Notes under the pieces: generated by a model | What the model was told of the DNA's origin: nothing | What the model saw: only the letters and a program-made list of their open reading frames with translations | Databases searched by the model: none | Source of the DNA: Alphaproteobacteria bacterium | GTDB lineage: Bacteria; Pseudomonadota; Alphaproteobacteria; RF32; CAG-239 | Length of the DNA: 64,000 nucleotides | Reading direction: 5' to 3' | Assembly: GCA_045644765.1 (NCBI GenBank) | Contig: JAZRHM010000001.1 | Span: 58,022 to 122,021 of the forward strand | Program-made: the position numbers and the translations under genes | Part shown: one piece after another, positions 2,454 through 15,957 of the stretch | Layout of the letters: every line of letters begins with the position of its first letter | Numbering within the stretch: position 1 is the stretch's first letter

Positions 2454-3284
2454 ATGGACTTTAAATTATCACTTAAGAGTACGGTTGAAAAATATGACCT
2501 TATGGCAAAAAAATCGTTAGGTCAGAATTTTTTGTTAAACCAGAATATTCCTGATAAAATTATCAGATGCTCTCTTGAAAAACAAAGTTTAAAAGATTTT
2601 CAAGATAATGATGTTTATGAAATTGGTCCCGGTCCGGGTGGCCTGACAAGAGCCATAATAAGCAACAATCCTAAAAAACTGACGGTTGTTGAAATGGATC
2701 ATCGTTGTATACAAATTATGGAAGAGTTGAAAAATGAGGCAAATGTAAACATGGATATAATCAATGATGATGCATTAAAAACAGATTTTTCAATTCTTGA
2801 AGGTAAAAATAAGCAGATAATCAGCAATTTACCTTATAATATATCAGTTCCCTTGCTTATCGGTTGGCTTAAAAAAATGCAACATTATCAGGGGTTGACT
2901 TTAATGTTTCAAAAAGAAGTTGCAGAGCGTATTTTATCTCCTATAAAAACTAAAAACTATGGCAGAATTTCTGTTTTGGCTCAATTATGCGCAAAAGTTG
3001 AAAAATTGTTTGATATTAGTCCGGAATGTTTTGTACCTGCACCAAAAATTTGGTCAACTGTTTTATTGTTTCAACCCTCAGATGATATCAAAGATGCACA
3101 AATTATGGAAAAAGTTGAACTTCTAACCGAAAAAGCATTCGGACAACGTCGTAAGATGATCAGACAGAGCTTAAAATCTATTGCAAATATTGATAAGGCA
3201 TGTGAAGTTGCCGGAGTTAATATGACAATGAGAGCTGAAGAAATCAGCCCTGAGCAATATTACAAAATCGCAGAAAATATATAA
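2454..3284 (+). CDS. rsmA: 16S rRNA (adenine1518/1519-N6)-dimethyltransferase RsmA/KsgA
   Basis: LGQNFLLNQNIPDKII and SAM-binding EIGPGPGGLT motifs. 276 aa. Directly downstream of surA. Confidence 0.9.
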   Translation: MDFKLSLKSTVEKYDLMAKKSLGQNFLLNQNIPDKIIRCSLEKQSLKDFQDNDVYEIGPGPGGLTRAIISNNPKKLTVVEMDHRCIQIMEELKNEANVNMDIINDDALKTDFSILEGKNKQIISNLPYNISVPLLIGWLKKMQHYQGLTLMFQKEVAERILSPIKTKNYGRISVLAQLCAKVEKLFDISPECFVPAPKIWSTVLLFQPSDDIKDAQIMEKVELLTEKAFGQRRKMIRQSLKSIANIDKACEVAGVNMTMRAEEISPEQYYKIAENI

Positions 3285-3289
3285 AAAAA

Positions 3290-4111
3290 CTATAAACTCA
3301 AACTCTTAAGTAATGCTATTTCTTCTTTCCAACCGTTTAGTTCATTAGGTGTTTCTAAAATAAAGGGCAAGTGTTTTAATTTCGGATGATTGATAATATT
3401 TACAATAGCTTCAAGTCCGATTGTTCCTTTACCGATTTGTTCATGCCTGTCTTTACGAGAGTCAAACGGCATTTTGCTGTCGTTAAGATGAATTGCTTTT
3501 AATTTGTTTAAGCCGATAATATTGTCAAATTGTTCTAAAACAGAATCGAGCTTATTAACAATATCATAGCCGGCAGAATACACATGACATGTATCTAAAC
3601 AAACACCAACTTTTTCTTTTAAGTGAACATTTTCCATAATTTGTTGAAGATCTTCAAAAGTAGAACCTACTTCGCTTCCTTTACCTGACATAGTTTCAAG
3701 TAAAACGGTAGTCGTTTGCGTTGGTGTTAAAATTTTATTTAATAATGCAGATATTTTTTCTATGCCGATTTGCACACCTTGCCCAACGTGACTACCCGGA
3801 TGAAAATTGTAATAATTGTGAGGGATTAGTTCCATACGTTTTAAATCATCAACAAAAACTAATTCGGCAAATTCGGCAGTGTTAGAGTTATCTGAACAAG
3901 GATTAAGAGTGTACGGAGCATGTGCTACAATTTTTTTATCAGGATAGACTTTCAAAAATTCTTTTATATCTTCCAAATCTAAATCTTTTGCTTTAGAGCC
4001 TTGCGGATTGCGTGTAAAAAACTGAAATGTATCAGCATTAATGGAAATGGCATTTTTTGCCATTGATACAAAACCTTTGGAAGAAGAAAGATGACAACCT
4101 AATTTAAGCAT
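3290..4111 (-). CDS. nfo: Endonuclease IV (AP endonuclease family 2)
   Basis: [13 protein letters not shown] start, [40 protein letters not shown] metal-binding motifs. Confidence 0.9.
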
Positions 4112-4239
4112 AAAAACTCCTTTCTGAAATTATATTAACAGTATAATATCATAAAATAAAACATCTATATTTTTTTGCGTTTTATTAAAAAAAGACTTGT
4201 TTTAAAAAAATATTGATGTATAAGCAATGAATAGTATAT

Positions 4240-4316
4240 CGGATTGTAGTTCAGCCTGGTAGAACGCTTCGTTCGGGTCGAAGAGGTCGCTAGTTCGAAT
4301 CTAGTCAATCCGACCA
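4240..4316 (+). tRNA. tRNA-Pro (anticodon CGG)
   Basis: Hand-folded cloverleaf. Acceptor CGGATTG/CAATCCG. D-stem GTTC/GAAC. Anticodon stem CTTCG/CGAAG with loop TTCGGGT. T-loop TTCGAAT. Discriminator A plus encoded CCA. Confidence 0.85.
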
Positions 4317-4326
4317 AATAACAAAA

Positions 4327-4349
4327 GAGCACCCTCGTGGTGCTCTTTT
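4327..4349 (+). terminator. Rho-independent terminator after tRNA-Pro
   Basis: Stem gagcacc/ggtgctc with 5-nt loop followed by TTTT. Confidence 0.6.
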
Positions 4350-4368
4350 GTTATTTGATTTTCGGGCT

Positions 4369-4470
4369 CTAGGTTCGAACTAGCGAGAAAGCTAGTTCGC
4401 ACTTCAAGCGAAAGGCGGACTTTAAGACGCCGGTGCCATAAGGCAGATGTGACGAAGCGGCGAAAATAAT
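4369..4470. repeat. Palindromic repeat element, copy A (RPE/MITE-like, about 100 bp)
   Basis: Head taggttcgaactagcgagaaagctagttcgcacttcaagcgaaaggc contains a perfect hairpin cgaactagc/gctagttcg. Shares head and tail (gaagcg..cgaaaataat) with copy B at 7674..7782. Confidence 0.55.
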
Positions 4471-4484
4471 TCGGTAAAAAATAG

Positions 4485-5384
4485 TTAAGCTTTGAATGTT
4501 TTTAGTAATTTCAAAAAATATGGGGATGGATTATCTTTGTTTAGGGCTAAGCCATAGCCGATGTAGCACAAAGCCATATAATCAAGTTGTTTTAGCTCTA
4601 TTTTTGAAGTTGTCAATTTGTTATATTCCGTCAGCGTATCAATCGCCAATTTGCGGTCAACTTTGTAAAGCGGGAAAAAATCCTGATATTTGGGCATAAT
4701 AACCATGTTTCCAAAGTCAATAATGCCGGCGAGAATATCATCGCTTTCGGGATTGAGTAACAGATTAGAGCCGCTTAAATCGTTGTGGCACAGTGCTTTA
4801 TCGGTATTTGGCAAAGTCGGTTTATTGTAATCTAAATCAATTTTATGTGGCAATAAAGCTTCTCTGACACTGGCATAATCAAAATCTTCTCTTGTGCTAA
4901 CGTCCCAATTATCAATAGCCTCGGTCGGCTCCGGCATATTTAGCTTTTTATAATCAATTTGGTGCATTAAATGAAAAAACATCGCTAAATCTTGCGCCAG
5001 TTTAAGCTGTCGCTCCGGTATAATATTTTGATATAAAACGGCATAGTCGCTTTCCGGACGTCCGTCACAAATTTTACCATATATACGCTTTGAAACAGAA
5101 AACGGATAAGTGCCGTCAATCAGTTCAATTTTGTGGATCTTACCCTCAAAATACGGCATTAAATGCGGATAAATCGTATCAATTATCATTTTTTCGCGTT
5201 GCATCGTCTGCCAAATTATTTCCGCTTTCGGAAAGCGCACAATATAATCGTCGGCATAATATGCAACCGAACGCGAACCGCTTTGTAATCGAGTAATCTC
5301 CTTAATTCCTTTAAAACCGCTATCAGCCAAAATTTTGCGGATTAAATCAAGATTATCAGCCGTCTCTTTCGTTATATATGTCAT
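4485..5384 (-). CDS. Phosphotransferase of the APH/choline-kinase fold (aminoglycoside phosphotransferase-like), substrate unknown
   Basis: YIVRFPK (beta3 lysine), HNDLSGSNLLL (compare APH(3') HGDLGDSNIFV catalytic loop), IIDFGNM (DFG). Confidence 0.6.
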   Translation of the reverse strand: MTYITKETADNLDLIRKILADSGFKGIKEITRLQSGSRSVAYYADDYIVRFPKAEIIWQTMQREKMIIDTIYPHLMPYFEGKIHKIELIDGTYPFSVSKRIYGKICDGRPESDYAVLYQNIIPERQLKLAQDLAMFFHLMHQIDYKKLNMPEPTEAIDNWDVSTREDFDYASVREALLPHKIDLDYNKPTLPNTDKALCHNDLSGSNLLLNPESDDILAGIIDFGNMVIMPKYQDFFPLYKVDRKLAIDTLTEYNKLTTSKIELKQLDYMALCYIGYGLALNKDNPSPYFLKLLKTFKA

Positions 5385-5637
5385 ATTTGTCCTCTTACTT
5401 CACTTGTATAGCTATATCGCTTAAAAAATATAAAAGTCAAGTTTAATTACCACGTGGACAGTGTATTTCATTGAAAAACAATAAAAAAATTATTACCACA
5501 CCTAGTGGGCGGTGAACAAAAGCCAACCTCACCAGTGTGGATGAGAAGGTTCGCCAACGTTAAAATAACACTTTATAAAATAATAAAAAAATTGCCTTAT
5601 CAAAAACAAGGTATTTTTTTTACAATTTAGAGGGTAG

Positions 5638-5735
5638 CAATCCGACCAACACAAGAAAACCACCTGCATGGTGTTTTTTTTGTATTCGAATTTGGTAGCT
5701 AGGACATGAACCTACGAAACATTAATTAATCATTG
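5638..5735. repeat. Degenerate duplicate of the tRNA-Pro 3' end plus downstream terminator and repeat head
   Basis: caatccgaccaa (12 nt identical to tRNA-Pro positions 4305..4316) followed by terminator-like caccTGCATggtgTTTTTTTT and ctaggacatgaacctacgaaac, resembling ctaggttcgaactagcgagaaagc at 4369. Confidence 0.45.
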
Positions 5736-5764
5736 TTGTGATATAAACAGTCATCAGATCACAT

Positions 5765-6703
5765 TCAATCATATAAACGATTCATATTACCTGTTTTGAG
5801 ATAATGTTGCATTGCCATATTTTCATCAATCTTACGTATTACCACACCGGGATTTTTATCAATTTCATCTGTTTTATTAGGCCAGTAATCATAAGGTGTT
5901 TTACTGTTTAAAAAATCACTGGCTCTCTGTGCAGCGGCTTCGATGTCTTTATCATCGTTAACAGTATAAACTCTTAACAAATGAAGAGCTCTTCCGGGAT
6001 AAGTTGTTAAAAAATCCAAATCAAGCTGCTCGGCTTTAGGAAGATCTTTTCGGCAACGAAGCATATAATCTACAAAATACTCTGCAGCATTTTCTACTCG
6101 ACCTTTATTATTATCAAATCCCTCATTATGTAAATTTTTATTTATTAGCAAAACTACTTTGCTTTTGCGTTTCAGGGCTTCAACAATTTCTGTTATGGCA
6201 ACTTTTCTGCCCCCCGTGCATACAAGGACATTAGATGCATTTGCTGTTGCTTCAGCATATGTTTCGGTGTCTTTGAAAACATGGATTGGAGTTTTTACAT
6301 ATTGCCTCATATTGATATCTTTATTAAAACCGTTAAAATCCGTATTTTCCCAGTATCTATCTGTAGTAAAATATGCTACATTTTCTGCGCCTAAGCCACT
6401 AATTTGCGTTGTTATATCATAAATTGATCCGTCTGCCACGGCCGGAGTTGTTATATATCCGGTATTTTTTGATCCTAAGTTTTTATCTAATGATTTAATA
6501 AATTTGGTGGTTACATCTTTATATCCTTCTTGATCAAAAGAATAACCCGATGTAGCAATCCTATATTTTTTATCACCTATGCCGGATTGTAGAATATCTG
6601 TAATGTCAGCTGTGTCATGGTGCACTAATTTGCAATCTTCTTTTGAGAAGTTGCCTAACAAATTAGCTTTCATTTGCTCTATTCTATCTCGGATAGAAAC
6701 CAT
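5765..6703 (-). CDS. Hypothetical protein; possible LOG/SLOG-like Rossmann segment (weak)
   Basis: 312-aa ORF. Segments IATSGYSFDQEG and NVLVCTGGRKVAITEIVEALKRKSKVVLL loosely resemble the Gly-rich loops of LOG/SLOG Rossmann proteins. No confident family assignment. Confidence 0.35.
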   Translation of the reverse strand: MVSIRDRIEQMKANLLGNFSKEDCKLVHHDTADITDILQSGIGDKKYRIATSGYSFDQEGYKDVTTKFIKSLDKNLGSKNTGYITTPAVADGSIYDITTQISGLGAENVAYFTTDRYWENTDFNGFNKDINMRQYVKTPIHVFKDTETYAEATANASNVLVCTGGRKVAITEIVEALKRKSKVVLLINKNLHNEGFDNNKGRVENAAEYFVDYMLRCRKDLPKAEQLDLDFLTTYPGRALHLLRVYTVNDDKDIEAAAQRASDFLNSKTPYDYWPNKTDEIDKNPGVVIRKIDENMAMQHYLKTGNMNRLYD

Positions 6704-6884
6704 ATTATATCCCCATTTATAAATCTTTTACTAAGTATATATCAAAATTTTATTTTTGTCTACATAAAAAATAATTATTAATAATCAGTACATATAATAT
6801 AAAATTATGATGTTGACAGAAAACAAATTACATGTTAGCATTGTGACAAATGATATGCTATTATTTGTCGAAAAGGAGAGAAAA

Positions 6885-7598
6885 ATGACAGCAGCAAGAC
6901 ATATTTCAATTAATGAAGCATTAAAAATGTTTGAAGGTGATGTTATGGAAGCAATTCCGACAGACAGAAAACGTATTGTTATCCCTGCGTTCGGTTTTGC
7001 AGGCGCAGAACCACATGAGCGTTTGGAATGGAGAGCAGATGGGACTTCTTTTATGGAAGATGTTAAAGGTTTAGCCTTTTTGAATCCTAAAGATGCAGCT
7101 GAAGGTCAAACAACACCTAATCAAATTTTGAAACAAAAAGATGGTGTGTTGCTTTGTTATGATGCTCCCGGACGTAAAGAGCAAATTGAAGGATATATAG
7201 CTACGCATCCGAATACATTTGACAATGCTGTTCGTTTGAAGCATTTTATTAATTATTTGACAAACGATGTTCTCAGCCAAGGTGGAGAAAAACCTGACTT
7301 GTGGGATTCTGATACGGCATTTGCTGCCAGTTTACGTGATGCTCCTGCTAAAGAAGATATCAAGCCCGGTATGGTATTCTCAAGTGTTAAGAAAAAAGAA
7401 GTTGTGCAAGCAATCAGAGTGCCGGAAGGTGTAACCTTTACAGGAACAGACGGACAACTTAAAAATGCTAAAAAGGGTGGGGCTTATATCATTAAAGATT
7501 CTGCCGGTATGAGGCTTATTCAGAGTGATGAATTTCCTAAAGCTTATCAGGTAATTAGAATGCCTAAAATGATGACTAAGGAACATGTAAAAGAGTAA
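6885..7598 (+). CDS. Hypothetical protein (no recognisable family); locally higher GC than its surroundings
   Basis: Strong RBS aaggagag 5 nt upstream of ATG 6885 (MTAARHISINEALK...). The track ORF starts at 6807 in the same frame. Divergent from the 5765..6703 gene. Confidence 0.5.
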   Translation: MTAARHISINEALKMFEGDVMEAIPTDRKRIVIPAFGFAGAEPHERLEWRADGTSFMEDVKGLAFLNPKDAAEGQTTPNQILKQKDGVLLCYDAPGRKEQIEGYIATHPNTFDNAVRLKHFINYLTNDVLSQGGEKPDLWDSDTAFAASLRDAPAKEDIKPGMVFSSVKKKEVVQAIRVPEGVTFTGTDGQLKNAKKGGAYIIKDSAGMRLIQSDEFPKAYQVIRMPKMMTKEHVKE

Positions 7599-7628
7599 TT
7601 ACTTATTCTTAAAGTTTAAGACAAAAAA

Positions 7629-7654
7629 CCTTACCGGTGTGGTAAGGTTTTTTT
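7629..7654 (+). terminator. Rho-independent terminator
   Basis: ccttacc-ggtgt-ggtaagg followed by TTTTTTT. Confidence 0.65.
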
Positions 7655-7673
7655 GTGTTGAATGCATTTGCAT

Positions 7674-7782
7674 TAGGTTCGAACTAGCGAAAAAGCTAGT
7701 TTGCACTCCAAACGAAAGGCACACGGAGGTGTGCCGGTCGGCAAAGCCGATGAGCGCCGAGCATGTAGCGAAGCGAAATAAT
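7674..7782. repeat. Palindromic repeat element, copy B
   Basis: taggttcgaactagcgaaaaagctagtttgcactccaaacgaaaggc ... gtagcgaagcgaaataat. About 85% identical to copy A in head and tail, with a different middle. Confidence 0.55.
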
Positions 7783-7958
7783 CTGCTTAATCCGGACTAA
7801 ATTTTACAAAACGCCAAAATCACATTCTTTTATTATCAATTTATTGTTATAATTGCATAATTTATAAAAATCTTTTTCTACTGATTTTTAGATAATTTCC
7901 CTCAAATTATTTGACTTTTACTTAAAAAATTTATATTCAAAAATACAAGGAGTGTAAT

Positions 7959-8465
7959 ATGAAATTAAAGAAAATTAGCACTGAAAAAGATGTGGAAATT
8001 GTTAGAAGTTTTTTCTATGATATATTTTGGGAAGAAGTTGATTACGATTTAATCCATTTCAAAGATTCAATAACCAAAAATCATAATTTTCAGCGTCTGG
8101 AATATTATTTAGGGTATGAAAACAATAATGTTGTTGGCATATCTGGTATATACGCAAATAATGCAAATGAATGTTGGTTAGGGTGGTTTGGTATAATACC
8201 GGAATATCGTCGCAAAGGCTATGCCTCAGCAATGATTAACTTGCAGTTAGAAATGATGAAAAATTACGGATACAAGCTATGTCGTCTTTATACTAATGAA
8301 GTTATCAATAAGGTTGCTGTGCAGTTGTATACAAAAATAGGATTTCAAAAAGATTCTGATTATGAAAATCATATAATAACAATGTTTAAACCACTGAATG
8401 ATGATACATATATTTCAAAGTGGCAAGGGATACCCTTAGGTTTTGTTCCGGAAGTGCCGATATAG
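7959..8465 (+). CDS. GNAT family N-acetyltransferase
   Basis: 168 aa. Acetyl-CoA binding motif RRKGYASAM and YTKIGFQKD. Confidence 0.7.
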   Translation: MKLKKISTEKDVEIVRSFFYDIFWEEVDYDLIHFKDSITKNHNFQRLEYYLGYENNNVVGISGIYANNANECWLGWFGIIPEYRRKGYASAMINLQLEMMKNYGYKLCRLYTNEVINKVAVQLYTKIGFQKDSDYENHIITMFKPLNDDTYISKWQGIPLGFVPEVPI

Positions 8466-8578
8466 TTCACAGATTACAAGATGCCGCTGTTCGACAAGTA
8501 ATATCAGGCAGACGGAAGTATGCCGGTGTCGTAAGGCAGATATAACGAAGCTATAATGAAAATTGTAGCTTTGCTATA
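8464..8578. repeat. Palindromic repeat element, copy C (5'-truncated at the GNAT stop codon) ending in hairpin cgaagctataatgaaaattgtagctttg
   Basis: tagttcacagattacaag...caggcagacggaagtatgccggtgtcgtaaggcagatataacgaagc aligns to the copy A tail gacgccggtgccataaggcagatgtgacgaagc. Confidence 0.45.
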
Positions 8579-8589
8579 GGGAAAAGAAA

Positions 8590-8682
8590 ATGACTAATAT
8601 TAACATGGAAATATCTGTTGCTGATATGAGTTCTAATGTTCAACATATACAAAAAGTAATTAAAGGAAGAAAAAAACATTAG
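8590..8682 (+). pseudogene. Frameshifted 5' fragment duplicating the start of the 10370..10714 gene
   Basis: About 90% nt identity to 10370..10462 (atgactaatattaa[c/a]atggaa...). One-A deletion in the poly-A tract (a7c versus a7cc) gives a stop at 8680. Confidence 0.55.
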
Positions 8683-8802
8683 AAATTGATATATATGGTC
8701 AGAATATTTTGTAGTTTAGTTCTTAATGAAATTTTTAAAATGCTTAAATATTTTTTTACTTTCCAAAGGTTATGTTTTTTTAGCCAACATAAAGGAAGAA
8801 AG

Positions 8803-9579
8803 ATGAGAAAATTCGGATTTAAATTTTTCAGTACTAATTTTCAAACAGCACCGGAAACTATCACAGAGTGTGCGGAGTTTGCGTTATCAAAAGAAGATGT
8901 TTTTATGGAATTTACGGCTGTTACAGTTACAACAAATGAAGAATTTAAGAAAATAAAAGCAGCCATAGGTAATATTGAAGTTCGTATCCATGCTTCATAT
9001 GACGGATTTGATGCCTCAAATAGTGAATTATTTCAACGAAATAAAAAAATTTTAGCATCTGCACAAAAAGCTGCTGATATATTTGATGCCAAAACCATTG
9101 TTGTTCATGCCGGCTATGGGCATAGCAAAAAACATTTAGAAGAAGCTGCCAGACAATTTAAATTGTTTAACGATGAACGTATTGTAGTAGAAAATTTGCC
9201 GTATTATGATAATAACGGCGATGAAATGCTTGGCAATATGGCTGATGAAATTGCTTATATAAGAAATGAGAGTAAATGCGGTTTTTGTTTTGATTTTTCG
9301 CATGCCATATGTTCGGCAGCTGCTCAGAAGTTGGATGTTGATAAATACTTACAAAGCTTATTTTTATTGAAGCCGACAGTTTATCACATGTGTGATGGCA
9401 ACATACCTGAAATGAAAGATTTACATTTGCATTTTGGTGAAGGAAATTATCCGCTTAAACATTATTTAAATAATTACACGGATGAAAATGCTTATATAAC
9501 AATGGAAACAGGAAACGGTTTCGAACAGAGTAATGATTTAAGGATAAAAGATTATAACTATTTGAAAGCAATGTTGTAA
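8803..9579 (+). CDS. Xylose-isomerase-like TIM-barrel (AP endonuclease 2 fold) protein, probably a sugar-phosphate isomerase/epimerase
   Basis: Motifs TIVVHAGYGHS, VVENLP, CFDFSHA, HLHFGEG. Start chosen at ATG 8803 with RBS aaggaag; the track ORF begins at 8686 inside the duplicated fragment. Confidence 0.5.
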   Translation: MRKFGFKFFSTNFQTAPETITECAEFALSKEDVFMEFTAVTVTTNEEFKKIKAAIGNIEVRIHASYDGFDASNSELFQRNKKILASAQKAADIFDAKTIVVHAGYGHSKKHLEEAARQFKLFNDERIVVENLPYYDNNGDEMLGNMADEIAYIRNESKCGFCFDFSHAICSAAAQKLDVDKYLQSLFLLKPTVYHMCDGNIPEMKDLHLHFGEGNYPLKHYLNNYTDENAYITMETGNGFEQSNDLRIKDYNYLKAML

Positions 9580-9718
9580 ATTTAAGCATTTATAATATTT
9601 TGCATACCAGATAGCATAAATTTTGTTTTTTATATAAAATGTCGTTTTGAAAACGACCAATTTGATAAAAATAAATAGTAAAACTTTTTTGTAATATTTT
9701 TTTATAAAGGAATGAGAT

Positions 9719-10312
9719 ATGAAAAAAAGTTTATTATTGGCAAGTGTTGCCTTTTCTATATTTACTACAAATGTTAATGCTATAGAACTAAAACCTTATA
9801 TCGGTTTTGATTATGTATATTCTAATGCTTCAACAAATGATGTGGTGGTCCAAGATGTTTTGGTTGGAAAAGATTTATATGAAAATAACTTTCATTCTTT
9901 AGGTATCAATGTTGGTACTTCTATAAATGATTATTTTGACATTGAAGCTTTTTACCAAAAATCAGCTGATGCTGAAGGGGATGTTGTAGCTTTAGTTGAT
10001 GGCTCAAACGTATATACCGATAAAATAAAAACAAGTTTCTATGCTTATGGTGTTGATGCTATCGGACATTTGCCGTTAAGTGAAAAATTTACTGCGATTG
10101 GTTCTGTCGGTCTAGGTCAATATGAATTTGAAATGAACGGATTTGGAGTAACAGCAAATGAAAATGGTTTAGGTGTTCGTTTAGGAATTGGTGTACAATA
10201 CAAGATTAATGAACATTTTGCTCTTCGAACGATAGCGCGTCAAACTCTGCTGGATATGGATTCTGTTGATAATATGACAGATTTTTCGGTTGGTTTTAGA
10301 TATAGTTTTTAA
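9719..10312 (+). CDS. Small outer-membrane beta-barrel protein (OMP_b-brl/OmpA-like barrel)
   Basis: Signal peptide MKKSLLLASVAFSIFTTNVNA. Alternating hydrophobic strands. C-terminal GFRYSF with terminal Phe. Confidence 0.6.
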   Translation: MKKSLLLASVAFSIFTTNVNAIELKPYIGFDYVYSNASTNDVVVQDVLVGKDLYENNFHSLGINVGTSINDYFDIEAFYQKSADAEGDVVALVDGSNVYTDKIKTSFYAYGVDAIGHLPLSEKFTAIGSVGLGQYEFEMNGFGVTANENGLGVRLGIGVQYKINEHFALRTIARQTLLDMDSVDNMTDFSVGFRYSF

Positions 10313-10324
10313 TAACATTAAAAT

Positions 10325-10361
10325 GCGAAGCTATAATGAAAAATTGTAGCTTCGCTATAGG
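10325..10361. repeat. Repeat tail hairpin, copy D (gcgaagctataatgaaaaattgtagcttcgc)
   Basis: Perfect 9-bp stem. Same element tail as 8546..8578. Directly upstream of the intact copy of the duplicated gene. Confidence 0.5.
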
Positions 10362-10369
10362 AAAAGAAA

Positions 10370-10714
10370 ATGACTAATATTAAAATGGAACTATCTGTTG
10401 CTGATATGAGTGCAAATGTTCATCATATACAAAAGGTAATTAAAGGAAGAAAAAAACCATTAGAAATTGAGATATATGGTCAGAAAGTTTTGTTTGTTTA
10501 TGATAATATTGAAATGCATGTATCTATAAAAGATATTAATACAAGTAATAATATAATACTTGCCAAGTATGTATTAATCAATCCATTATCGCTATTTAGC
10601 TTAATTACAAAATATAAAAAGTATGATTTTTTTAAAATATCATTTGAAGATATAGGTTTAAGGATAATGATAGATAATACTGTTTTTAGCTTTTGTGCTA
10701 AAAAAGTTATGTAA
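10370..10714 (+). CDS. Hypothetical protein (intact paralog of the 8590 fragment)
   Basis: 114-aa ORF, MTNIKMELSVADMSANVHHIQKVIKGRKKPLEIEIYGQK... Confidence 0.5.
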   Translation: MTNIKMELSVADMSANVHHIQKVIKGRKKPLEIEIYGQKVLFVYDNIEMHVSIKDINTSNNIILAKYVLINPLSLFSLITKYKKYDFFKISFEDIGLRIMIDNTVFSFCAKKVM

Positions 10715-10804
10715 AATGTATTGATATAAAAACAATCATACGTTAGCATGTTCAGATAATGTTTAAACAGACCTGTTAGTTATTCAGATAATAAATATGA
10801 GTAG

Positions 10805-11362
10805 GTGTTAAAGGGTTTTCAGATGATTAATTTAATTAGTTTTTTTAAGAAATGCAAAGATGAGAAAAATGACAATATATCTATATTGCACGATTTAGTA
10901 TCCGAAGCAAAAGTGTATGTGAAAAAGAATTTTTGCCCTTGGGAAGATGATGATTATCCTGAGGTAACAGAATTTTATCAAATATCGTACGATGGTATTT
11001 TAGAAGATGAAGATTTAGAGCCAAGCTTTTCACAAATGCTTTTTAAGTTTATAAAACAACGAGGAATATCTGAAACAGATTGTTATAAAAATGCAAATAT
11101 TGATAGAAAATTATTTTCAAAAATAAGAAGCGATGATGAGTATCAGCCTAAAAAAACAACCGTTTTTGCATTTATTATCGGTTTAAAATTAAATTTGGAC
11201 GAAGCCAAAAAATTATTGGAGTGTGCAGGATATTCTTTATCCCACAGTAAAAAACAAGACATAATAATAGAATATGCAATCAAAAAACAAATTTATAATA
11301 TAAACATGGTTAATGAAATTTTATATACTTTAGAATGTCAAACTTTAGGTAGTAAAGAGTAA
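10805..11362 (+). CDS. Hypothetical protein, possible helix-turn-helix segment
   Basis: 185 aa. RGISETDCYKNANIDRKLFSKIRSD loosely fits the XRE-type HTH pattern. Confidence 0.35.
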   Translation: MLKGFQMINLISFFKKCKDEKNDNISILHDLVSEAKVYVKKNFCPWEDDDYPEVTEFYQISYDGILEDEDLEPSFSQMLFKFIKQRGISETDCYKNANIDRKLFSKIRSDDEYQPKKTTVFAFIIGLKLNLDEAKKLLECAGYSLSHSKKQDIIIEYAIKKQIYNINMVNEILYTLECQTLGSKE

Positions 11363-11426
11363 AATTTTCCAATAAGAATAATGTATTATAAAAATTCCCC
11401 ACTGTTCAAAGTGAGGGATTTTTGTT

Positions 11427-12704
11427 TTATAAATCTAAGCTTCTTTTTCTTATTTTTTCAGAAACTCGTTCCATAAAATTATCTAAAGAAACATTGTTTA
11501 TCTGCTGTCCATCTCTTAATCGAACGGAGATATTGTTATTTTCCACTTCTTTATCGCCTACAACAACAATATATGGAATTTTTTTCTTAACAGCATCTCT
11601 AATTTGATAAGAAATCGTATTACCGGAAATATCAGCTTCTGCACGTATATCATTTTCTGACAATTGCTGTTGAATCTGAAGAGCTACACTTTGGTGCCTG
11701 TCAGATATTGGCAAAATTTTAACCTGAACAGGTGATAACCAAACCGGTAATTTACCTTCGCATTGTTCCAGATAAACACCTATAAAGCGTTCGATAGAAC
11801 CTAAAATTGCGCGATGTAACATAATCGGCACATGCTTTTGTCCGTCTTCGCCGATGTAGAACATTCCCCACTTTTCCGGTAAATTTAAATCAAGTTGTAT
11901 CGTCATACATTGCCATTCTTTACCGTTTTTATCGATTGCTTTAACATCTATGGCCGGTCCGTAAAACTTTGCTCCTCCGACATCTATATCATATGGAATG
12001 TTTTTATCTTTTAACACTTGTTCGACCGATTGTTCTGCCATCTGCCAAATCGGTTCATTATCAATATATTTATCTTTTTTATCTTTCAAATCTCTGATAG
12101 AAAAATAAACTTTGAATTTATCATAACCAAAAACTTTATTGACGGCAAAACCGAAATCAAACACTTTTGAAAGCTCTTCCATGAATTGATCTTGGCGACA
12201 GATGATATGAGCATCATCTTGCGTAATTGAGCGAACACGTAACAAACCTTGCAAACCGCCCGATGCTTCATAACGATAAACATTTCCTAATTCGCAATAT
12301 TTAATCGGAAGCTCTTTATACGAATGTATGGAAGAATTATAAATTGCCACATGAAAAGGGCAACTCATCGGTTTAACATAATAAGCGCCCTGCTCTTCTT
12401 TGTCTTTTAACGACATATCCATTGGCGGATACATACAATCGGCAAAATGTTCCAAATGGCCGGATTTTTCCCATAACTGTTTTAATCCGACAACCGGAGA
12501 ATATACATATTTGTATCCTGCTTTTTGATGTTCTTTTTTCCAAAAAGCTTCAATTTCGTTTCGTATAATTGCACCGTTAGGATGCCATAAAGCCAGTCCG
12601 GAACCTATATAATCGTTGAAAGAAAATAAATCTAACTCTTTACCGATACGACGATGGTCGCATTCGGATACACTTTGTTTTTCATCTATATTAATGTTAT
12701 TCAT
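11427..12704 (-). CDS. thrS: Threonyl-tRNA synthetase, catalytic plus anticodon-binding domains only (N-terminal TGS/editing region absent)
   Basis: DHRRIGKELDLF (E. coli ThrRS residue ~243), MSCPFHVAIY, RVRSITQDDAHIIC, HRAILGSIERFIGVYLE. In-frame stop 11 codons upstream of the Met. Only 439 bp of non-coding DNA upstream. Confidence 0.8.
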   Translation of the reverse strand: MNNINIDEKQSVSECDHRRIGKELDLFSFNDYIGSGLALWHPNGAIIRNEIEAFWKKEHQKAGYKYVYSPVVGLKQLWEKSGHLEHFADCMYPPMDMSLKDKEEQGAYYVKPMSCPFHVAIYNSSIHSYKELPIKYCELGNVYRYEASGGLQGLLRVRSITQDDAHIICRQDQFMEELSKVFDFGFAVNKVFGYDKFKVYFSIRDLKDKKDKYIDNEPIWQMAEQSVEQVLKDKNIPYDIDVGGAKFYGPAIDVKAIDKNGKEWQCMTIQLDLNLPEKWGMFYIGEDGQKHVPIMLHRAILGSIERFIGVYLEQCEGKLPVWLSPVQVKILPISDRHQSVALQIQQQLSENDIRAEADISGNTISYQIRDAVKKKIPYIVVVGDKEVENNNISVRLRDGQQINNVSLDNFMERVSEKIRKRSLDL

Positions 12705-15159: not shown

Positions 15160-15957
15160 CTAGTCTGATGTCATAACCTTACGACGACCTTTTAATGACT
15201 CATCAATAAATTCAACTTGCTCCATAACCATGGCGTTATCTTTGAATTTTTCATGGGATTGAGCCAAACGAGTTTCAAAATTGTCTGTCTTACCTTTAAA
15301 CAAGAACATAAATGCTCTGGTGATAGATTTAACAACACCTTCTTCAAAACCGCTTCTCTTTAAGCCGATAACATTTAAACCACGCAGTTTACCTCTATCG
15401 CTTGCAACAATACCAAACGGAATAACATCACGGTCAACTGCTGTCATACCTCCGATCATAGCTTTGCGACCGATACGACAAAACTGATGAACTGCGCTGT
15501 TTCCGCCAATGATAGCGCCATCGCCAACACGAACGTGTCCGCCAATTACGGCATTATTGGTCATAATAACGTTGTTACCAACGACACAGTCATGAGCAAC
15601 GTGAGAGTTTACCATGAACATACAATCATCACCGACAACTGTTGTAAACTGTTCTTTAGGTGTGCCGGCATGCATTGTAACATTTTCTCTTATGATGTTA
15701 TTTTTACCGATAATAAGTTTTGCTTCCTCTTTAAATTCATTTCCATGATCTTGAGGTCCTGAACCCAAACAAGCTCCGGGGAAAACTATTGTTCCCTCAC
15801 CGATTGTTGTATCTCCCATAACATTTACACGAGCCAACAATTTAACATTTTCGCCGATTTTTGCACGAGAGCTAACCCAACAGAAAGGTCCGATCTCAGC
15901 AGATTGAGCAATTTGAGCGCCGTCTTCTACAACAGCAGATGGATGAATTTTAGCCAT
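15160..15957 (-). CDS. lpxA: UDP-N-acetylglucosamine O-acyltransferase LpxA
   Basis: Hexapeptide-repeat left-handed beta-helix. HVAHDCVVGNNVIMTNNAVIGGHVRVGDGAIIGG and C-terminal GLNVIGLKRSGF match LpxA. Confidence 0.85.
   Translation of the reverse strand: MAKIHPSAVVEDGAQIAQSAEIGPFCWVSSRAKIGENVKLLARVNVMGDTTIGEGTIVFPGACLGSGPQDHGNEFKEEAKLIIGKNNIIRENVTMHAGTPKEQFTTVVGDDCMFMVNSHVAHDCVVGNNVIMTNNAVIGGHVRVGDGAIIGGNSAVHQFCRIGRKAMIGGMTAVDRDVIPFGIVASDRGKLRGLNVIGLKRSGFEEGVVKSITRAFMFLFKGKTDNFETRLAQSHEKFKDNAMVMEQVEFIDESLKGRRKVMTSD

Follow-up and report, generated by a model that had tools for sequence, protein, structure and literature searches.

SLOG domains serve as ligand-binding or N-glycosidase cores in cytokinin synthesis, Thoeris immunity and the gating of TRPM channels, and new SLOG partner domains have tended to uncover new nucleotide-based pathways. 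In ShosTA, a DprA-like SLOG protein, ShosA, neutralises its partner toxin. The SLOG domains of known role act either as nucleotide N-glycosidases or as sensors, and SLOG sensors occur in Thoeris and related conflict systems (PMC9503650). Here, we analyze a pair of divergent genes, designated A and B, located in a 64,000-nucleotide stretch of contig JAZRHM010000001.1 from an uncultured gut alphaproteobacterium (assembly GCA_045644765.1, labelled Alphaproteobacteria bacterium), hereafter called the window. Gene A encodes a divergent protein of SLOG fold, and gene B encodes a protein whose predicted structure and sequence point to a superfamily that has not been described. Our preferred reading, held with about even confidence, is that A and B form a chromosomally native, functionally coupled pair acting on a nucleotide-derived small molecule. 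In such a pair, A would bind a ligand derived from an adenine nucleotide and resembling AMP, ADP-ribose or NAD, and might cleave the N-glycosidic bond of this ligand. B would work with A, either in physical association as a second subunit or by providing the subsequent step, or the output, of one shared pathway. What the data show directly is the fold of A, the lack of any known fold or family to which B could be assigned, the recurrent adjacency of the two families, the fusion of their domains in another lineage, and the native composition and core-gene context.

Fold and family of the two proteins

Protein A adopts a three-layer alpha/beta Rossmannoid fold like that of SLOG proteins of solved structure, with fold-match scores of 13.5 for TM1055, 13.3 for the N-terminal domain of the TRPM2 chanzyme (219 residues aligned), 13.1 for LOG, 13.0 for YgdH, 12.8 for DprA, 12.6 for the MoCo carrier protein, 11.6 for ShosA, 11.0 for YpsA and 10.5 for the SLOG domain of ThsA. 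Two signatures mark the family, YRIATSGYS after strand 1 and CTGGRKVAxxE after strand 4, and within them G53-Y54-S55 and T163-G164-G165...E172 show no variation among 26 relatives of A. The loops that follow strands 1 and 4 are the ligand-contacting elements of SLOG proteins (PMC9503650). At the sequence level, the signal was consistent across the family and sub-threshold throughout: 24 of these 26 members matched LDcluster4 (PF18306) and 5 of the 26 matched LSDAT_prok (PF18171), the best E value among all 26 being 8.7e-4, with protein A of the window scoring 13.8 bits against a Pfam gathering cutoff of 26.3. Protein A had no match to the Pfam LOG family, reached only an E value of 0.087 with TIGR00725, and belonged to no significant family in Pfam, NCBIfam, PADLOC or PHROG, its best PADLOC match being PDC-S05 (E 0.0079, 13.8 bits). 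When the profile of the A family was compared with the sequences in the PDB, only chance matches to Fab light chains were obtained. A is thus a divergent SLOG-fold protein, and the SLOG affinity that a preliminary description of the window had guessed for it holds at the level of the fold, its sequence support staying below threshold. A may be either a LOG-like N-glycosidase catalyst or a mere sensor.

Protein B carries the signatures FxNPKD..Q, DGVLxCYDAPGR, DLWDSDxxFA and GGAYIIKDxxGMRLIQxxxFxKAY, and the mean column identity across two alignments of its family was 56-62%. Its structure was predicted with confidence (predicted local distance difference test score of 90.1, from 34 sequences), and the model consists of a beta-rich N-terminal lobe, a helical hairpin and a beta-rich C-terminal lobe. 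When this model was compared with viral structures in Foldseek, the highest TM-score was a meaningless 0.27, and the profile of the B family had no match among PDB sequences. Likewise, no PADLOC or PHROG family and no significant Pfam or NCBIfam family was found for B, whose sub-threshold matches were MFD_D3 in 10 of 34 relatives (best E value, 9e-4) and VapB (E 0.11), and no features of a nuclease, NADase, pore or protease could be recognised in it. In the model, B is a soluble alpha/beta protein with two lobes, and it belongs to an undescribed superfamily for which no known fold or family was found.

Clustering at 90% identity gave 38 relatives of A and 73 of B, or about twice as many for B. 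Their sources are metagenomes of the gut or rumen and genomes labelled 'Alphaproteobacteria bacterium', and none has a name or a Pfam domain. The lack of significant Pfam, NCBIfam and PADLOC matches agrees with the preliminary description, but these relatives show that neither gene is an orphan. One homologue of A comes from a short contig (L017; JAZSES010000217.1, 2224 bp) binned as Candidatus Limenecus, a member of Melainabacteria and not of Alphaproteobacteria, which would reflect either a mis-binned contig or transfer between gut lineages. Another, 47% identical to A (L022, 9668-11863), bears an unrelated C-terminal extension of about 380 residues with no recognisable domain, in which hhalign detected no likeness to B.

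A search of 1.84 billion representative proteins with the B profile returned only 65 clusters. The superfamily falls into three groups, namely, B1-main, which consists of close relatives and includes B of the window, its sister group B1b (about 37% identical to B1-main), and a distant group B2 (about 22% identical) that hhalign nevertheless ties to B1 with a probability of 99.5% and an E value of 3.9e-22. Group B2 comprises 264 or more proteins of environmental bacteria, including Devosia, Dyadobacter, Kovacikia and Binatia, and the named entries among the matches listed are all hypothetical, except for one JGI entry labelled 'ZapA'. One internal B2 domain is found in a 2472-residue effector-like protein with SpvC-like domains.

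Linkage of the two genes in other lineages

The two domains are joined in protein P0172, a single 600-residue protein encoded by a continuous ORF (open reading frame) of 604 codons in locus L026, in which an A-like domain is followed by a B2 domain. The A profile aligned with residues 103-360 (hhalign probability of 97.9%, E 4.8e-13, 233 columns) and the B profile with residues 376-599, and the A-like domain holds the same strand-1 and strand-4 motifs as the A family. Two further proteins end in a B2 domain that follows a SLOG-like region, which is itself preceded by an ApaH-like metallophosphatase in P0157 and by an adenosine deaminase in P0166; their middle regions are mutually homologous (E 3e-13) and both contain GG...E motifs. 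The B domains of P0157, P0166 and P0172 were detected in the 1.84-billion-protein library by hmmsearch with E values of 7.9e-7, 9.7e-6 and 2.8e-4, respectively.

To follow the two genes across genomes, A loci from about 12 lineages were searched in six frames with the A, B1 and B2 profiles. A B-family gene was found at most 3.5 kb from A in 4 of these lineages, in three arrangements and with members of two B subclades. The pair is divergent in the species of the window, where it is kept in two other strains (L011 and L012, about 98% identical to the window in nucleotide sequence), and also in L018, whose A is 62% identical to that of the window. In L016, the genes are adjacent in tandem on one strand, and in L005/L015 B lies 2.6 kb from A. 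At the linked loci of other lineages (L018, L016 and L005), A is 57-62% identical to the window protein, and all three B1b members with genomic context adjoin A. Since A and B are adjacent in several lineages, in three arrangements and with two B subclades, and since an A-like domain is fused with a B domain in P0172, we conclude that a functional coupling of A and B is the reading best suited to these data.

The main alternative is that A and B are unrelated neighbours, that is, a stand-alone SLOG nucleosidase or sensor beside an independent clade-specific protein, their adjacency being retained synteny or chance. We consider this unlikely, although some of the observations that weigh against a coupled pair speak for it. 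Adjacency is absent from most A loci, so that linkage is only partial: no B was found within 6-10 kb of A in L001, L003, L013, L014, L027, L028 and L029, and, in all, A occurs without B at seven or more loci and B without A at four or more. The close relatives of the window B that were sampled, the B1-main genes of L007 and L009, adjoin NrdDG and HydFG genes in housekeeping contexts with no A nearby, the stand-alone B2 genes of Devosia and Dyadobacter have no SLOG neighbour, and B clusters outnumber A clusters about twofold. The SLOG assignment of the middle regions of P0157 and P0166 comes from motifs and sub-threshold Pfam matches only; hhalign of the A profile against these two proteins was not significant, and their SLOG-like segments retrieved nothing useful from the PDB sequences. 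Furthermore, some B2 proteins have signal peptides or lipoprotein signals, which sits badly with a strictly cytoplasmic nucleotide role.

Divergence between strains adds to these points. The B genes of the window and of L011 (2784-3497) differ at 15 nucleotides, 12 of which are non-synonymous, giving a ratio of non-synonymous to synonymous rates (dN/dS) of about 1.8, compared with 0.15-0.38 for neighbouring genes. The changes cluster in residues 5-149, several of those specific to the window depart from the family consensus, and one of them, G50R, hits a nearly invariant glycine. The numbers are small, and either a loss of constraint on the window B or its rapid adaptation may explain them.

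Against unrelated neighbours stands the probability of finding B so close to A by chance, which we put roughly below 1% per genome (assuming, rather than measuring, one or two B genes in a genome of about 2 Mb), compared with 4 of about 12 lineages. The three arrangements and two B subclades, together with the fusion in P0172, likewise argue against it. The two-gene module suggested by the preliminary description is thus upheld by recurrent adjacency and by a single polypeptide with both domains, and strict co-occurrence of the two genes is not supported, since most A loci have no B within 6-10 kb and the sampled close relatives of the window B have no A.

The other neighbours of A in L001 (257 residues), L013 (257 residues) and L003 (322 residues) were not B-like by hhalign. 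An unnamed family of 321-322 residues adjoins A in L003 (4831-5799) and the B1b gene in L005. More generally, the surroundings of some A homologues (L005, 4496-12901; L003, 4831-5799; L028, 9238-14595) are rich in genes without a Pfam match.

Composition and context of the locus

Base composition was compared among the 52 ORFs of the window, which has a G+C content (GC) of 33.6% overall and 34.3% on average in its ORFs. Gene A is unremarkable, with a GC of 34.4% (z = 0.03) and a GC at third codon positions (GC3) of 24.3% (z = -0.29). Gene B reaches 38.8% (z = 1.4), with a GC3 of 25.2% (z = -0.04), and owes its excess to codon positions 1 and 2 (53% and 38% GC), which indicates a protein rich in Gly, Ala, Pro and Asp and not a foreign origin. 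The silent sites of both genes are native and not foreign-looking, and the elevation to about 40% GC previously ascribed to the two genes is wrong for A and a matter of amino-acid content for B. The only strong silent-site outlier near the pair is the neighbouring APH-family kinase gene, with a GC3 of 37.7% (z = +3.28). In three other species (L013, L014 and L016), A lies beside HflK/HflC, DegP, HolC and an LpxA-like gene, and an LpxA-like gene is also present in the window; these core-gene neighbours point to long chromosomal residence. Native silent sites and core-gene neighbours together speak against the horizontal acquisition that had been proposed for the pair.

The same data bear on a role in defence, also raised in the preliminary description. 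In such a role, the pair would be an undescribed anti-phage system with the SLOG protein sensing an infection-derived nucleotide signal and B acting as the effector. SLOG sensors do occur in Thoeris and related systems, and ThsA is among the fold matches of A. B-domain fusions contain an adenosine deaminase and a calcineurin-like phosphoesterase, the A gene of L027 is 5 kb away from a resolvase and a BREX locus, the B2 gene of Devosia is found among genes for a serine recombinase, a Dcm methylase, Vsr and a HATPase, and A weakly matches the PADLOC candidate PDC-S05 (E 0.008). However, neither protein has a significant PADLOC match, B giving none at all, and no signal-generating enzyme, such as a TIR protein or a cyclase, lies nearby. 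The context in the window consists of core genes with APH and GNAT genes and is no defence island, A stands beside HflKC, DegP and HolC in three species, and both genes are of native composition. In addition, B lacks the effector features looked for above, and neither A nor B was found on viral contigs by profile scans, for which the B2 alignment was too diverse as a query. On this evidence, we regard an anti-phage function as quite improbable.

The features of the locus are collected in Table 1. The two divergent ORFs and the AT-rich spacer between them are as first described, as are the strong ribosome-binding site of B and a terminator 3' of this gene; the hairpin of the latter was not listed by the promoter scan and is known from direct sequence reading. 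For B, the longest ORF begins at 6807, and the start at 6885 is favoured by the ribosome-binding site 6 nt upstream, by the best plus-strand promoter-like site, which lies inside the longer ORF, and by its relatives, whose first residue falls at residue 6 of the 237-residue form. The hairpin 3' of A may act as a bidirectional terminator, judging from its sequence. After the GNAT gene come a xylose-isomerase-like TIM-barrel gene and an outer-membrane beta-barrel gene. Two direct copies of a sequence of about 190 nt (8546-8732 and 10326-10515; 89.5% identity) each cover a gene start together with the DNA ahead of it, that of the TIM-barrel gene (8686) in one case and that of a 114-residue ORF (10370) in the other.

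Table 1. Features of the A-B locus and of the regions compared with it (window coordinates unless a strain is given)
Feature	Position	Strand	Description or basis
Gene A	5765..6703	-	312-aa SLOG-fold protein
Gene B	6885..7598	+	237-aa member of an unnamed domain superfamily
A-B divergent control region	6704..6884		181 bp, 20.4% GC; composition, promoter scan and sequence reading
Promoter-like site towards A	6762->6734	-	Consensus match only
Promoter-like site towards B	6813->6841	+	Best on that strand; consensus match only
Ribosome-binding site of B	6873-6878		AAGGAG, 6 nt ahead of ATG 6885
Intrinsic-terminator-like hairpin	7623..7654	+	3' of B; CCTTACC / GGTAAGG, then T-run; direct sequence reading
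Weak hairpin	5656..5681		3' of A; CACC / GGTG, A and T runs on either side; direct sequence reading; candidate bidirectional terminator
tRNA-Pro(CGG)	4240-4316		
12-nt direct repeat	4306-4317 and 5638-5649		Copies of the tRNA-Pro 3' end
Repeat copy R1	4370-4460		Structured repeat between tRNA-Pro and APH gene; folding energy -38.9 kcal/mol
APH-family kinase (phosphotransferase) gene	4485-5384	-	
Repeat copy R2, left half	7674..7697		R2 split by GNAT cassette; alignment with intact repeat of strains L011 and L012
GNAT cassette	7698-8488		791 bp
GNAT gene	7959-8465		
Repeat copy R2, right half	8489-8551		Alignment with intact repeat of strains L011 and L012
LpxA-like gene	15160-15957		
Repeat/cassette comparison regions	L011 5910-6780; L011 2622-2708; L012 431-517		

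The repeats and the duplicated tRNA-Pro end had been taken as the boundaries of the pair. Two copies of the structured repeat (4370-4460 and 7674-7720) are 91% identical over 47 nt and bracket a block composed of the APH gene, A and B, with the APH gene separating R1 from A. In the window, the GNAT cassette is inserted in the middle of R2, just after ...GAAAGCT; in L011, it occupies the equivalent position of R1, on the opposite side of the APH-A-B block, and R2 between B and the next gene is uninterrupted in both L011 and L012. No nucleotide of the GNAT gene differs between the window and L011, as against differences of about 0.6-2% in neighbouring genes. This unit looks like a small gene cassette moving between copies of the structured repeat. 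Its position and identity across strains indicate that the repeats are recombination or insertion sites for another gene and not the ends of the A-B pair, so that mobility of the pair is not supported. The two other strains compared share the APH-A-B block, in unchanged position with respect to the genes downstream of it, the GNAT cassette alone having moved.

The 12-nt direct repeat of the tRNA-Pro 3' end, CAATCCGACCAA, is followed by a hairpin at each of its copies, and the two copies enclose just R1 and the APH gene (4318-5637), not A and B. This is consistent with an old insertion at the tRNA gene. The boundary elements named earlier are all present. The left arm of the structured repeat (4369-4386; 7674-7690), which contains GGTTCGAA, is the reverse complement of the T-arm and acceptor region of tRNA-Pro (4287-4304), with 94% identity over 17-18 nt, and the repeat family may, on this resemblance, be derived from a tRNA. 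No Rfam family was found for it, tRNA-Pro being the sole match in a scan of 3500-11500.

A recently acquired genomic islet, bounded by the palindromic repeats and the tRNA-Pro duplication, would explain why repeats flank APH-A-B, why 12 nt of the tRNA-Pro 3' end recur at 5638-5649 and why the adjacent APH gene is a GC3 outlier. We nevertheless judge it very improbable: the GC3 values of A and B are at the mean, the 12-nt repeats bracket R1 and APH only, and the rearrangement between strains concerns the GNAT cassette. Moreover, the A family has partly conserved core synteny in other species, and neither the ORF list nor the Pfam scan revealed an integrase or transposase within 3000-11000. A toxin-antitoxin or toxin-immunity pair resembling ShosTA, with B as the toxin, is equally implausible, for although a B domain also occurs inside the 2472-residue effector-like protein, such a pair would require strict co-occurrence, yet A and B often occur alone, the two genes are divergent and not co-transcribed, and the high conservation of B is more in keeping with a conserved role in the cell than with a toxin caught in an arms race.

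Significance and comparison with described systems

What is new here is a SLOG-centred pair with an undescribed partner domain, tied together by gene neighbourhood and domain fusion. The link between A and B would give a first lead to the function of an unnamed superfamily, which counts several hundred proteins, and would also bear on conserved genes of poorly known gut Alphaproteobacteria; if it were merely syntenic, the pair would amount to just two further hypothetical proteins. A bolder proposal, which we put forward tentatively and consider less probable than not by some distance, is that the B domain, lacking a counterpart in PDB, Pfam and PHROG, is a new fold and the output or enzymatic half of an unrecognised class of SLOG-centred nucleotide systems. 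This class would extend from gut Alphaproteobacteria to environmental bacteria, and some lineages would have incorporated it into effector-like proteins or into large proteins that combine several enzymes, one of them an ApaH-like phosphatase or an adenosine deaminase. If this proposal were true, the B-SLOG class would amount to a new pathway, of signalling, conflict or host interaction, that acts on a derivative of an adenine nucleotide.

The pair differs from the closest described systems. Thoeris combines the TIR protein ThsB with ThsA, in which a SIR2 or transmembrane effector is fused to SLOG, and no TIR or SIR2 domain was found in A, B or the ORFs of 3000-11000. More generally, unlike ThsA of Thoeris and ShosTA, the window pair has no SIR2, TIR or phosphoribosyltransferase partner and no PADLOC match, and the co-occurrence of its partners is loose. 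Among the nucleotide 5'-monophosphate phosphoribohydrolases LOG and PpnN (YgdH), the LOG family has the catalytic motif PGGxGTxxE, compared with TGGRKVAITE in A, where the spacing is off by one residue, and no equivalent of the LOG catalytic arginine was found in A. The nearest relatives of A, with Pfam scores below threshold, are the prokaryotic LSDAT/LDcluster4 branch of SLOG proteins (PF18171 and PF18306) and the N-terminal MHR1/2 domain of TRPM channels; unlike members of the LSDAT/LDcluster4 branch, the window pair comes without a transmembrane or other known effector partner, the partner of A being an undescribed domain. The metagenomic proteins P0157, P0166 and P0172 differ from the window pair in belonging to the distant B2 branch, and the enzyme domains of such multi-domain B2 proteins (ApaH-like phosphatase and adenosine deaminase) are absent from it. 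They nonetheless share its organization, as each joins, in one polypeptide, a domain of the same B superfamily to a preceding A-like or SLOG-like region.

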